The notes beneath the pieces are model-generated. The model was not told where the DNA came from and did not search any database. It saw only the letters and a program-made list of their open reading frames with translations. A stretch of 64,000 nt of DNA, from positions 22,312-86,311 of the forward strand of contig JALWXN010000001.1 in the NCBI GenBank assembly GCA_027078545.1. Reading direction: 5' to 3'. Source of the stretch: Nitrososphaeria archaeon. GTDB taxonomy: Archaea > Thermoproteota > Nitrososphaeria > Geothermarchaeales > JDFR-13. This document shows, one piece after another, positions 60,952 to 64,000 of the stretch (the stretch's first letter is position 1; each line of letters opens with the position of its first letter). A program made the position numbers and the translations under genes.

Positions 60952-61848
60952 CTAATCCCTATAGTCTGGCCAGTATCTCCCCTCGAATCCATACTTGTTG
61001 AGGAGTCTGTAGAAGTGTCTTTCCAGGGCTATGTCTATCTCCCTAGTGTAGTAGGGTGTTAGCCCGGTCTCCTCTCTAATCATCCTTGTGTTGGCCCCCC
61101 TTATGTGTAGACACTCCCCATGGACATAGTCTGGACGTATCTCGTCGAGGGCTTGGAATAGCCTGTCAAGCTCCCTATAGGGGTCGTATCCATATGGGTT
61201 GCCGGGTAGCGGTGGGAATATCGGTGATATCATGGCCCCTGTCTTGAAGCCTCTCTCCTTGGCCCTCCTAAGCACCTCCAGCCTAGCCTTTGGAGCTGGT
61301 GCGTATGGCTCTATGACCCTTGAGAACTCCTTGTTGAGGGTTGGTATCGAGACCTGTATCCATACCCGGTCAATATACTGCTCCAGTAGGTCTAGGTCTC
61401 TGAGTATGAGTGGGGATCTAGTCAGGATATAGAAGCCTACCCCGCTTGGTAGGGCTGTCTCCAGGATCATCCTCGTATAATCCCTGATCTCCGGTAGGTA
61501 GGGGTCGTGCATGGAGCTCATGAGGACGTATCTCCCGCTCCACCTCCTCCACGGTGTAGCCTTGATAGCCTCCTCTAGGTTCTCGGGTATCAAGAGGTAA
61601 GTTCCCCACCTCTTCTTAACCACTTCTCCATAGTTTCTCCAGAGCCTCTTTATGATCGAGTCTACATAGCAGAATATGCATCCGTGGCTACAACCCACCA
61701 CATAGTTGACTGCCCATCCGTCTGAGTATCCCTCCTCTATGTTGTATGGGATCCGGCTCCTCCTCACTATGGGTGGCCTGATCCTATAGGCTCTATATGT
61801 GATGCCGAGTCTGGCTATGCGGGGCTCGATATCCATCCCGGTATCCAC
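60952..61848 (-). CDS. Radical SAM protein, SplB-like family (second paralog)
   Basis: NYVVGCSHGCIFCY, SSMHDPYLP, ILTRSPLILRD, IEPYAP. Confidence 0.85.
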   Translation of the reverse strand: MDTGMDIEPRIARLGITYRAYRIRPPIVRRSRIPYNIEEGYSDGWAVNYVVGCSHGCIFCYVDSIIKRLWRNYGEVVKKRWGTYLLIPENLEEAIKATPWRRWSGRYVLMSSMHDPYLPEIRDYTRMILETALPSGVGFYILTRSPLILRDLDLLEQYIDRVWIQVSIPTLNKEFSRVIEPYAPAPKARLEVLRRAKERGFKTGAMISPIFPPLPGNPYGYDPYRELDRLFQALDEIRPDYVHGECLHIRGANTRMIREETGLTPYYTREIDIALERHFYRLLNKYGFEGRYWPDYRD

Positions 61849-61896
61849 TCCCAGCAGGATATGTGGGATAATCAGCTGTTAAGATGATGGGTTGGG

Positions 61897-61955
61897 TGGT
61901 CAGGGACTCTATCTCTAATCATCTCTTCCTCATTTGACCGTCTTCTCATCATCCC
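61897..61955 (-). ncRNA. Box C/D methylation-guide sRNA
   Basis: Minus strand: ATGATGA-gaagacggtcaa-ATGA-ggaagag-ATGATTA-gagatagagtcc-CTGA; two 12-nt guides. Confidence 0.8.
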
Positions 61956-61985
61956 GTCTCATAATATGTTTCTCCGTGGCTATAA

Positions 61986-62252
61986 CTACTGCTCCTCTCT
62001 TGGGATGGAGGAGGCTGTGTATAGGTCTATCGTCATCTCGCCGAGGTCCATGGTGTACTCGGTTATCCTCTTGATGCTCTCCAGGATGGTGCTTGCTAGT
62101 ATGGGGCTCCTCGGGGGCTTGGACTGGAGCTTCTTGGCCGTGGCCTCTATCCTGGCTATCAGCCTCTTCCCGGCTGAGATGGTCTCGTTGGCCTTCTCTA
62201 TATCCATCGTCCTGTAGGAGTGCTCTGAGTAGCTGAGTATCTCCCCCGCCAT
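61986..62252 (-). pseudogene. 3' fragment of an archaeal PhoU-type phosphate uptake regulator
   Basis: DIEKANETI...ILESIKRITEYTMDLGEMTID matches the last PhoU repeat; only 88 aa; abuts AT-rich DNA. Confidence 0.6.
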
Positions 62253-62349
62253 ATGACTATTCCTATTAGCTTATCTTGGTTCTCTACAACAGGTAGGCCA
62301 TGTATATTCATACCAACCATGATCTCGATGGTATCCGAGACTTTAGAAC

Positions 62350-62540
62350 TGGATCTACAACGATCGTGTCCCTGAGGATATTCGACTCGAATCTATTAAT
62401 CCTCCTAGCCATGTTAACCTGCTCTTCTACACCACAGCTCCTATGTAGAATGTCTAAACACCCCCAATGTAATTGCCGCCTCTGGAGTGATAATTATATC
62501 CATAAGAAACTATACAAGATAGAGCCAGATGAATGCACTT
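62350..62540 (-). pseudogene. Decayed IMP dehydrogenase (guaB) fragment
   Basis: Minus strand reads KCIHLAL/LV*FLMDIIITPEAAITLG/CLDILHRSCGVEEQVNMARRINRFESNILRDTIVVDP, with one stop and frameshifts; resembles the IMPDH segment leading into the CBS domain. Confidence 0.6.
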
Positions 62541-62586
62541 TACGATTAAGAAAGATTTATATATTTAATGGAGAAAAATAATTAAC

Positions 62587-63336
62587 ATGACAAATAGAAG
62601 AGATTTTCTGAAATTAGCTATTTGGGCCTCATTTCTAATAACAATAAATAAAATAAGTAAGGTAAGTGAAGCCGAGGCTAATCCTTCGTATATCGTTTCA
62701 AGGGGGACGATATTATATAATATCTTGGACCTATATGTTACACATAGGTTAGAAGATCTAGGCGATGGAAATCATGTAACTAAAATTTTTCCGATAGAGA
62801 TAATTAAGATGTCTGATTTAAGTAAAGAAGATGAAAGTAGTATAGAAAAGAGTTTTGATGTTTTCTTAGTTCACGGTAAAAAACCAAGAATTTTAAAAGG
62901 GAGGAAAGTTTATTTAGAAATACTATACAAAAATTGGAAGATTCCGGTAACTGAATATGCTGTGTTTTCTAAGGATGGAAACTATCTCGTTTATTATGAA
63001 ATTGGTACTGAAGATAAATTTAGAGCTGCTGCCAAAGTTATGATCCGAAACAACTCAATTCACTTCGGAAAAATAAGCGTCAATGGACGAATAGTTAAAT
63101 TGGCTTCATGTGTTGATAGCTGCACATCACATGATGATTGTGCTGGTGCTCCCTACATGGGATGTTATCCTTACTGTTGTTCCATTGATATTGAATGTTG
63201 TGCTGAGGAATGCATTTACTGTTTATTATGTCTCCTCGGTTCTAAAATTGGTTGTCTTCTATGTCTAAGCCTTTGTACGTTAATGTGTTTGGATTCATGT
63301 TGTACTCAAGAGGCGAACTCATGTACGTCCCCATAA
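62587..63336 (+). CDS. Tat-exported precursor with Cys-rich C-terminal domain (halocin-C8-like archaeocin candidate)
   Basis: NRRDFLK twin-arginine motif and AEA cleavage-like site; no Cys in aa 1-174, 18 Cys in aa 175-249. Confidence 0.75.
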   Translation: MTNRRDFLKLAIWASFLITINKISKVSEAEANPSYIVSRGTILYNILDLYVTHRLEDLGDGNHVTKIFPIEIIKMSDLSKEDESSIEKSFDVFLVHGKKPRILKGRKVYLEILYKNWKIPVTEYAVFSKDGNYLVYYEIGTEDKFRAAAKVMIRNNSIHFGKISVNGRIVKLASCVDSCTSHDDCAGAPYMGCYPYCCSIDIECCAEECIYCLLCLLGSKIGCLLCLSLCTLMCLDSCCTQEANSCTSP

Positions 63337-63352
63337 AAGGAGGTGGGGTGGA

Positions 63353-63694
63353 ATGGAACGCACAAGGGAATATGGCCCCAAATATATATTCCTCCTGGTG
63401 ATCGTATACTTGATATCTCTGTTTATTAGCCTCTATTTGGGGAGGTTCGTAGTTGTCCAGATGGTGGTGGATACGTTCCTGCTGGTGAGCAGCATTCTAA
63501 TCATCTTCCTCTTGAGATATCCAAGACGATTCATAGGCACGGTTATCTTCGTGTATTGGTTCCTTACAAAGATAACCATTAGTCAGGTGCTAAAGGGTAT
63601 AAGTGTTGAGATGATGGCCTTACTAACCTTCGTATATGGGGTGATGCTTCTCCTAGTTGTAGAGCAGTATATGTCGATTAGAGGCGGTGAATAG
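63353..63694 (+). CDS. Small 4-TM membrane protein (candidate immunity/partner)
   Basis: RBS AGGAGGTG directly after the precursor stop; four hydrophobic helices. Confidence 0.7.
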   Translation: MERTREYGPKYIFLLVIVYLISLFISLYLGRFVVVQMVVDTFLLVSSILIIFLLRYPRRFIGTVIFVYWFLTKITISQVLKGISVEMMALLTFVYGVMLLLVVEQYMSIRGGE

Positions 63695-63986
63695 CTACGT
63701 TCAACTAAGAATGGTTGAAACTTCCTGATTATGTAGGATCGATGCAACTATCCCAAATAACATGCTTGCTTAATATTGCTACTATGCTATTGCTGGAGCT
63801 GGAAAGCACATGTATAATATGTTCATCCCAAGAATCTCAACAACTATAGCATCCTCCTTCTTAACATAATCTGGCTTATGTGGGTTTGAGGTGGTTCCCC
63901 ATATTATATAGGCTTTAGGAGGAGAGTCCTTATAGAGAGTATGGTATGTTCATCTATATCCTGATTTTCTGGCTATATAAAGAGGA

Positions 63987-64000
63987 TGGTCAGGGACTCT
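63987..64000 (+). repeat. Direct repeat of 61897-61910 (sRNA 3' end), truncated by the window edge
   Basis: TGGTCAGGGACTCT is identical at both positions. Confidence 0.75.

Follow-up and report, generated by a model that had tools for sequence, protein, structure and literature searches.

Characterised antimicrobial proteins from archaea are very few, and nearly all of them come from haloarchaea or Sulfolobales. Among the described systems, the one that most invites comparison with the locus examined here is halocin C8 (HalC8). Its Natrinema precursor, ProC8, is exported through the twin-arginine translocation (Tat) pathway and contains its own immunity protein, HalI, as the N-terminal part; homologues of HalC8 have also been reported outside the haloarchaea (bioRxiv 10.64898/2026.07.27.741052). 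In the window, by which we mean the whole 64,000-nucleotide stretch of DNA that was analysed, an intact open reading frame of 249 codons (62587-63336, forward strand) had been read from its letters alone as a halocin-C8-like archaeocin precursor in a non-halophilic archaeon. The observations behind this reading were correct, and the kind of function it guessed is the one that we infer as well, but the kinship with halocin C8 was wrong. The novelty it saw in a non-halophilic host is also weaker than claimed, because HalC8 homologues beyond the haloarchaea were already known (bioRxiv 10.64898/2026.07.27.741052).

The case against kinship comes from profile searches. The halocin C8 domain model TIGR04449 (cut-off 24 bits) did not match the window protein at E<=0.1 and had no match in a six-frame search of the whole genome at E<=10; the same model does match in a Haloferax control. 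PF22862 (HalC8_like_N) left the window protein unmatched at E<=1, and none of 12 members of its family matched either model at E<=10. Profile-profile alignment with hhalign of the family (A5) against seven Thermococci HalC8-domain proteins, six of them above the TIGR04449 cut-off (A6), returned a probability of 1.8% and an E-value of 0.028 over 31 columns. Genuine HalC8-domain genes above the cut-off occur in 6 of 133 Thermococci genomes. Two genomes, G502 and G557, carry both HalC8-domain genes and the new family, each at separate loci. The tails of the new family contain 14-20 Cys (18 in the window protein, hence more than in C8, as had been claimed), are rich in Leu and Ile and differ in Cys spacing from HalC8, which has 10 Cys in about 76 residues and is rich in Gly and Ala. 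On this evidence the family would be analogous to halocin C8 without detectable homology. At one of the Thermococci HalC8-domain loci (L047:513-1007 and L047:1492-2472, both on the reverse strand), the gene is followed directly downstream by another copy that is truncated at the N-terminus and ends in a different Cys-rich tail, an orphan-module arrangement that is typical of polymorphic toxins.

The reading that we prefer, with slightly better than even confidence, is that the gene encodes the precursor of a disulfide-rich, hydrophobic helical-hairpin effector and forms, together with a membrane immunity gene, a two-gene toxin-immunity ("archaeocin-like") cassette.

The precursor and its Cys-rich tail

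The 249-residue product divides into a signal peptide, an N-domain and a tail (Table 1). The sequence-only reading had claimed a Tat signal, a Cys-free pro-region of about 145 residues and a 75-residue tail with 18 Cys, and all three are borne out. The N-terminus (MTNRRDFLKL...SEAEA) combines an RR motif (RRDFLK), a hydrophobic stretch and AEA, and an export signal, there of the Tat type, is also present on ProC8; residues 32-174 comprise 143 amino acids with zero Cys; and all 18 Cys fall within residues 175-246 of a tail that spans residues 175-249. The hydrophobic core quoted in that reading is located at residues 204-239. Since TatC and two TatA genes are encoded in the genome of this archaeon, a Tat signal should be usable here. 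The RR motif recurs in the family members P0008 and P0011, so that three members with RR were found in total.

The gene is AT-rich, as had been noted (GC 0.34 in the gene, 0.52 in the window), and lies in a low-GC stretch that begins near 62300 and lasts until the window ends. The claimed TATA element can be read as TTTATATA, centred about 27 nt upstream of the ATG, and transcription from this putative box could yield an mRNA with a short leader or none. With 0.95% Cys among the residues of the open reading frames of this genome (a 1.24-Mb MAG in 11 contigs), the chance of at least 18 Cys in 75 residues is about 2e-20. The precursor has the densest Cys cluster of any open reading frame in the genome (18 in 75 residues), followed by a runner-up with 11 Cys in 75 residues.

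Table 1. Features of the precursor locus and its surroundings (window coordinates)
Feature	Position	Strand	Basis
Left copy of the 356-bp direct repeat R, bounding the island	61897..62252	-	Contig and depth evidence
Left island end, CBS-domain gene fragment (pseudogene remnant)	62253..62451	-	Weak CBS Pfam match
TATA-like box TTTATATA	62556..62563	+	Read directly from sequence
Signal peptide, aa 1-31, twin-arginine N-R-R-D-F-L-K, A-E-A cleavage-type motif	62587..62679	+	
Cys-free N-domain, aa 32-174, candidate carrier or pro-region	62680..63108	+	AF2 model
Cys-rich tail, aa 175-249 (18 Cys), and stop, candidate mature effector	63109..63336	+	Tail-only AF2 model
Shine-Dalgarno-like GGAGGTG, 7 nt 5' of next ATG	63339..63345	+	Read from sequence
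Small polytopic membrane protein, 113 aa, 2-4 hydrophobic helices, candidate immunity or partner protein	63353..63694	+	ORF and hydrophobicity
AT-rich non-coding right island end	63695..63983	.	Composition
First 17 nt of the right copy of R; contig C1 and the window end here	63984..64000	-	Direct repeat D4

In the AF2 model of the full-length protein (m1e1de648a28f, pLDDT 67.5), the N-domain is predicted as a single long helix packed against a six-stranded antiparallel sheet (pLDDT mostly 65-80); confidence in the AF2 models is moderate (pTM 0.55). A Foldseek search of PDB folds with the N-domain returned nothing at E<=0.001, and the best match in the VIA wide search, a cystatin-like fold with Z 5.4, is at noise level. 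Two phmmer matches to residues 92-175, the long Rib-repeat protein P0003 and P0010, were rejected as compositional similarity to Gram-positive surface protein. The N-domain also exists in a shortened form: an allele with an in-frame deletion of 192 bp (62773-62964) encodes a protein without N-domain residues 63-126 (64 aa). Its product has been deposited as the 185-residue protein P0002, and vent run X3 contains the allele (depth 71) side by side with the full form (about 100-300).

The tail opens with a conserved C-x-x-x-C...D-C...C-C motif. A tail-only AF2 model built with 16 homologues (pLDDT 78) orders this Cys-rich head, a strand (192-200), a helix (202-215), a four-residue turn, a second helix (220-237) and a closing strand (239-247), so that the helical hairpin proposed by the sequence-only reading is recovered as a structure prediction. 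The Cys lie on a single face of each helix and the opposite faces are rich in Leu, Ile and Met; 59% of the non-Cys residues of the hairpin are hydrophobic. Seven Cys are invariant across the 16 tails compared. Against PDB folds, the tail gave nothing at E<=0.001 with Foldseek and a best Z of only 3.2 in the VIA wide search.

That the hairpin would be stapled by disulfides rather than occupied by metal thiolates is suggested by the number of Cys. Of 29 tail clusters formed at 70% identity, 27 have an even count (14, 16, 18 or 20; binomial p 8e-7), and inside a cluster the count shifts in steps of two, as expected if disulfide partners are gained and lost in pairs; nothing of the kind is required of metal sites. 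The even number implies oxidised Cys and hence an extracellular fold. Most members contain an extra single Cys near the signal peptide, so that whole-protein totals are often odd. The Thermococci copies carry Sec-type signals, and TatC was not found in four Thermococci genomes that contain the family. The export route thus appears not to be conserved across the family, and the mixture of Tat and Sec export argues against a cofactor that needs cytoplasmic loading.

The family and its membrane-protein neighbour

The window protein matched no Pfam model (E<=1) and no NCBIfam model, and it belongs to an uncharacterised family that neither library covers. An exhaustive phmmer search recovered seven distant clusters of 190-250-residue proteins of like layout. 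One of these proteins, ACS89719.1 from T. sibiricus, is annotated as hypothetical and is not mentioned in the literature searched. With a profile of 14 members, a six-frame scan found matches in 42 of 133 Thermococci genomes, 4 of 96 Archaeoglobi genomes and 4 of 401 Thermoproteota genomes. The family is therefore at home in Thermococci and sporadic elsewhere. Some of the Thermococci copies occupy conserved chromosomal positions, hence the family is not always mobile. A search for longer fused forms (577-2000 aa) returned none, which weighs little as evidence. Makarova et al. reportedly predicted in 2019 many candidate families of this kind, among which the present one may already be; in the literature and family libraries searched, no earlier description of the family was found.

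Within the family, orphan tail reading frames, split copies and copies with internal stops occur, with up to 5 matches per genome. At one locus of Archaeoglobus sp. UBA230 (L035:564-1343 and L035:1495-1692, both on the reverse strand), a 65-residue orphan tail frame is found about 7.6 kb from a full cassette. Beside this orphan lies a gene for a 259-residue secreted protein with a different hydrophobic tail, rich in Gly, Ala and Cys, which has zero Pfam or NCBIfam matches. At three Thermococci loci from related genomes (L041, L043 and L044), the cassette is divergent to a gene for a TldD/PmbA-like metalloprotease, as judged from N-terminal sequence; this adjacency is probably shared synteny. 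In E. coli, TldD/E process microcin B17.

The tail diverges much faster than the N-domain. Nine pairs of proteins share N-domains that are at least 80% identical and have tails with 40-56% identity, and zero pairs show the reverse. In genome G388, two variants share an exact 127-bp 5' part, after which the tail and the downstream gene both diverge.

This downstream gene is the most constant companion of the family. A small membrane-protein gene is found directly 3' of the family gene in 39 of 39 loci examined, and only 2% of genes in the genome of this archaeon have such a neighbour. The encoded proteins have about 60-170 residues and 2-5 helices and sometimes occur as two or three in tandem; the first start codon lies within about 120 bp of the precursor stop or the gene overlaps it. 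The 113-residue protein of the window has zero matches in Pfam or NCBIfam, and ESM Atlas gave nothing named. Mutual homology between the membrane proteins of different lineages is undetectable, and the argument for an immunity role is therefore one from position and co-variation.

Co-variation is seen among close relatives only. For pairs with N-domains at least 75% identical, the membrane proteins have a median identity of 0.58 where tail identity reaches 70% and of 0.16 where it does not (p 2e-5, from pairs that are not independent). Across the whole family, the correlation between membrane-protein and tail identity is weak once N-domain identity is controlled (partial 0.07). One locus (L025) combines an N-domain like that of L036 (92%, T. 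sibiricus type) with a tail (72%) and a membrane protein (72%) like those of L037. In view of position and co-variation, the 113-residue protein is a candidate cognate immunity protein, and the hypervariable tail together with the co-varying membrane gene would indirectly support a toxin-like role of the precursor.

The island and its repeats

Both genes lie on an island between direct repeats (Table 1). The repeat, R, has two recognisable parts: an sRNA-like element of the C/D-box type (61898-61956) and, from an AbrB-PhoU regulator gene, the final 88 codons (61986-62252). The sRNA-like element, on the reverse strand at the start of R, scores 26.7 bits against Rfam sR20 (E 0.006), which falls short of the gathering threshold. 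Three other genomes of the genus contain look-alikes of it that are about 56 nt long and 80-88% identical. The end of contig C4 is an exact 127-bp copy of 62126-62252, followed by the full-length AbrB+PhoU gene, pstS and pstC. Because C4 holds the full-length gene past the shared 127 bp, the copy in the window must be only the last 88 codons. Exactly at 62253, the sequence ceases to follow native phoU and gives way to foreign DNA, which begins with a CBS-domain gene remnant. The DNA of this remnant is 68% identical to C4:1061484-1061691, and its CBS Pfam match (E 0.002) is below the cut-off.

At the right end, the last nucleotides of the window form part of a second repeat copy (16 of 17 identical to 61894-61910), and in runs X1 and X3 the island end, ...GGCTATATAAAGAGGA, is linked to position 61897, where R starts. 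The same junction is present in a 2,036-bp contig from another genome of the genus (L002 in genome G003), which is 99% identical to 62102-64000 and then continues into a 96% identical copy of 61894-62047. Loose ends of public vent metagenome contigs link the island end to 61897 and position 62252 to the body of phoU. In run X1, the left flank has a depth of 124, R (61897-62252) of 251, the island of 91-150 and the phoU side of 140, that is, R has twice the depth of the flank and the island single-copy depth. The simplest structure consistent with these data would be flank, R, island (62253-63983, 1,731 bp), R and phoU, which is what integration of an R-bearing circle of 2,090 bp into the chromosome by one crossover would produce. 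An equimolar episome would also be compatible with the contigs alone; integration is favoured because an identical protein is recorded on a 519-kb contig. The island contains no recombinase gene.

Horizontal acquisition, which had been suggested by the sequence-only reading, agrees with an AT-rich island that is flanked by direct repeats and is 99% identical across hosts with differing flanks. In run X2, the island is 99.6% and the flank 98.4% identical; in run X3, the island is 99% identical at high depth and the flank mostly below 90%. Among four other genomes of the genus, only one contains the island, and in another the flank is present but the island is missing. All metagenomes in which the gene was found are from hydrothermal vents.

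The radical-SAM gene immediately to the left of R (60952-61848, reverse strand) was considered as a source of a peptide-modifying enzyme and rejected, since it is located outside the island and shares the conservation of the host flank (86% in G002); its product matches the Rv2578c/PA0069 (SplB-like) class. Contigs C8, C10 and C11 were likewise rejected as continuations of the island because they look like bacterial contamination. They are short and low in GC and contain an IS110-type transposase, a large repeat/adhesin-like fragment and a lipoprotein. Contigs C1 and C4 each start with a G/C homopolymer of 13-15 nt, next to which their sequences are similar, and their other ends meet at R; the two probably close into one circle.

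Function and comparison with known systems

How might such a cassette work? As judged from sequence and models, the precursor would first be exported, through Tat in this archaeon and through Sec in those Thermococci without TatC. Outside the cytoplasm, up to nine disulfides may form in the 75-residue tail. They would staple its pair of antiparallel helices, and the two-stranded sheet that closes the fold, into one unit that resists heat. The Cys-free N-domain could carry or mask the greasy tail and is perhaps removed by cleavage near a conserved S/T-x-N-G motif. The tail might then attack the envelope or membrane of competitor archaea, from which the co-inherited membrane protein would shield the producer. 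The cassette itself would have arrived on the 1.7-kb AT-rich island between two copies of the sRNA-like element and phoU 3' end. Antimicrobial activity and processing of the precursor would both belong to this proposed course. Two features of the toxin-immunity class are found here, namely a variable C-terminal module on a conserved N-terminal part and a co-varying downstream gene. A reading as a conflict cassette fits the fast-evolving tail, the constant adjacent membrane gene, the orphan, split and multi-copy forms, and the mobile island.

The same gene pair could serve a purpose other than killing. The hairpin may be a C-terminal membrane anchor of a surface protein and the membrane protein its docking partner, with a role that could lie in envelope structure, adhesion or kin recognition; on this view, the variability of the tails would stem from specific recognition or from evasion of viruses and not from toxicity. 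We consider this explanation unlikely. The score of segment 209-227 (KD 2.17) is that of a transmembrane helix, but it treats Cys as hydrophobic, and helices of just 14-18 residues with 4-5 Cys on one face would be unusual for an anchor that spans a lipid bilayer. The hydrophobicity of the remaining hairpin residues and the ever-adjacent membrane partner gene suit an anchor, as does the neighbourhood, in which no protease or exporter gene is conserved among the loci examined. Oxidised Cys in an extracellular fold, as implied by the even counts, speak against it. The orphan tail cassettes and pseudogenes, the patchiness of the distribution and the mobile island are more in keeping with genes of conflict.

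Binding of metal is a more distant prospect, and we regard it as improbable. The copper storage protein Csp1 is exported through Tat and carries many Cys along the helices of a helical bundle. In a similar manner, hairpins of the present family could dimerise into a bundle with Cys lining its interior, giving a secreted thiolate-rich protein that buffers Cu(I), Zn or Cd in metal-rich vent fluid. This idea draws on the Cys that line one face of both helices, the Tat motif and Tat genes of this archaeon, the restriction of metagenome holders to vents and a DtxR-type metal regulator gene that adjoins the pair in one Archaeoglobaceae locus. Against it stand the even Cys counts, which metal sites do not require, outer helix faces too rich in Leu, Ile and Met for a soluble bundle, the need of the Thermococci members to export via Sec, and the hypervariability of tails in which metal sites would usually be conserved. 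None of the 12 family members matched a metal-binding model in Pfam or NCBIfam, including those for DUF326/Csp and ferredoxins/4Fe-4S proteins. A 4Fe-4S motif of the type CxxCxxCxxxCP is absent from the tail, where C209-x2-C212-x2-C215 is followed by LLGSKIGC and not by xxxCP.

Very divergent common descent from halocin C8 is the least credible explanation and very improbable, because the similar overall layout, the small membrane genes downstream of Thermococci HalC8 loci and a sub-threshold third place for a "Halocin C8" cluster (0.83) in the ESM Atlas protein-language-model search are outweighed by silent profiles, differences in Cys number, spacing and composition, and the distinct loci of both families within the same genomes.

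If the toxin-immunity reading holds, the family provides a testable antimicrobial candidate in thermophiles, including cultivable and genetically tractable relatives of Thermococcus. What it predicts is a heat-stable peptide of some 8 kDa that contains as many as nine disulfides, together with a membrane partner that confers protection. The island illustrates a minimal route by which such cassettes may move between distant vent archaea, and, should the effector prove real, so small and so densely crosslinked a hairpin would make an interesting thermostable peptide scaffold. A broader proposition, to which we give a little less than an even chance, is that this is a third, undescribed family of archaeocins. 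Such a family would combine a Sec/Tat carrier with a hypervariable disulfide-ladder hairpin as the warhead and a membrane immunity protein, occur in about one third of Thermococci species, spread across phyla at vents and, in the present case, travel on a recombinase-free 1.7-kb mini-island that inserts by homology at the sRNA/phoU 3' end.

Several known systems share parts of this design. The helices of plant alpha-hairpinins and similar disulfide-stapled hairpin peptides (for example Luffin P1, PDB 2L37, and BWI-2c, PDB 2LQX) are also antiparallel with Cys at i and i+3/4 on facing sides, and entries of this group appear among the weak structural matches of the tail (Z 3.0 and 2.7, at noise level). 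These eukaryotic proteins are polar and contain 4 Cys, so the likeness is one of geometry and not of kinship. Csp1 resembles the family as an exported protein with many Cys arrayed on helices. It differs by its four-helix bundle, compared with the two-helix hairpin of our model; the family in turn has no DUF326 match and shows a hydrophobic exterior, even Cys counts and hypervariable sequence.

The genetic organisation resembles that of polymorphic toxin and class II bacteriocin cassettes. There too, a conserved N-terminal part bears a rapidly diverging C-terminal module, a small membrane protein encoded directly downstream co-varies with this module, and orphan modules, patchy distribution and carriage on mobile islands are encountered. 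Unlike in these cassettes, the candidate warhead would be a tiny disulfide-rich hairpin instead of an enzyme domain, and no dedicated apparatus for secretion or delivery is encoded, export being left to the general Tat or Sec pathway.

With ProC8 and the HalC8 proteins of Thermococci, the family shares an export signal, a Cys-poor N-terminal domain of 150-240 residues and a hydrophobic, Cys-rich C-terminal module of about 75-85 residues; small membrane-protein genes and orphan tail modules downstream are also features of the Thermococci HalC8 loci. Unlike in ProC8, the N-domain is of unrelated sequence and the tail has 14-20 instead of 10 Cys with other spacing and composition. Finally, since immunity in ProC8 resides in its N-terminal part HalI, the two systems would also differ in how the producer is protected: in the present family, the separate co-varying membrane protein is the better candidate for this role.
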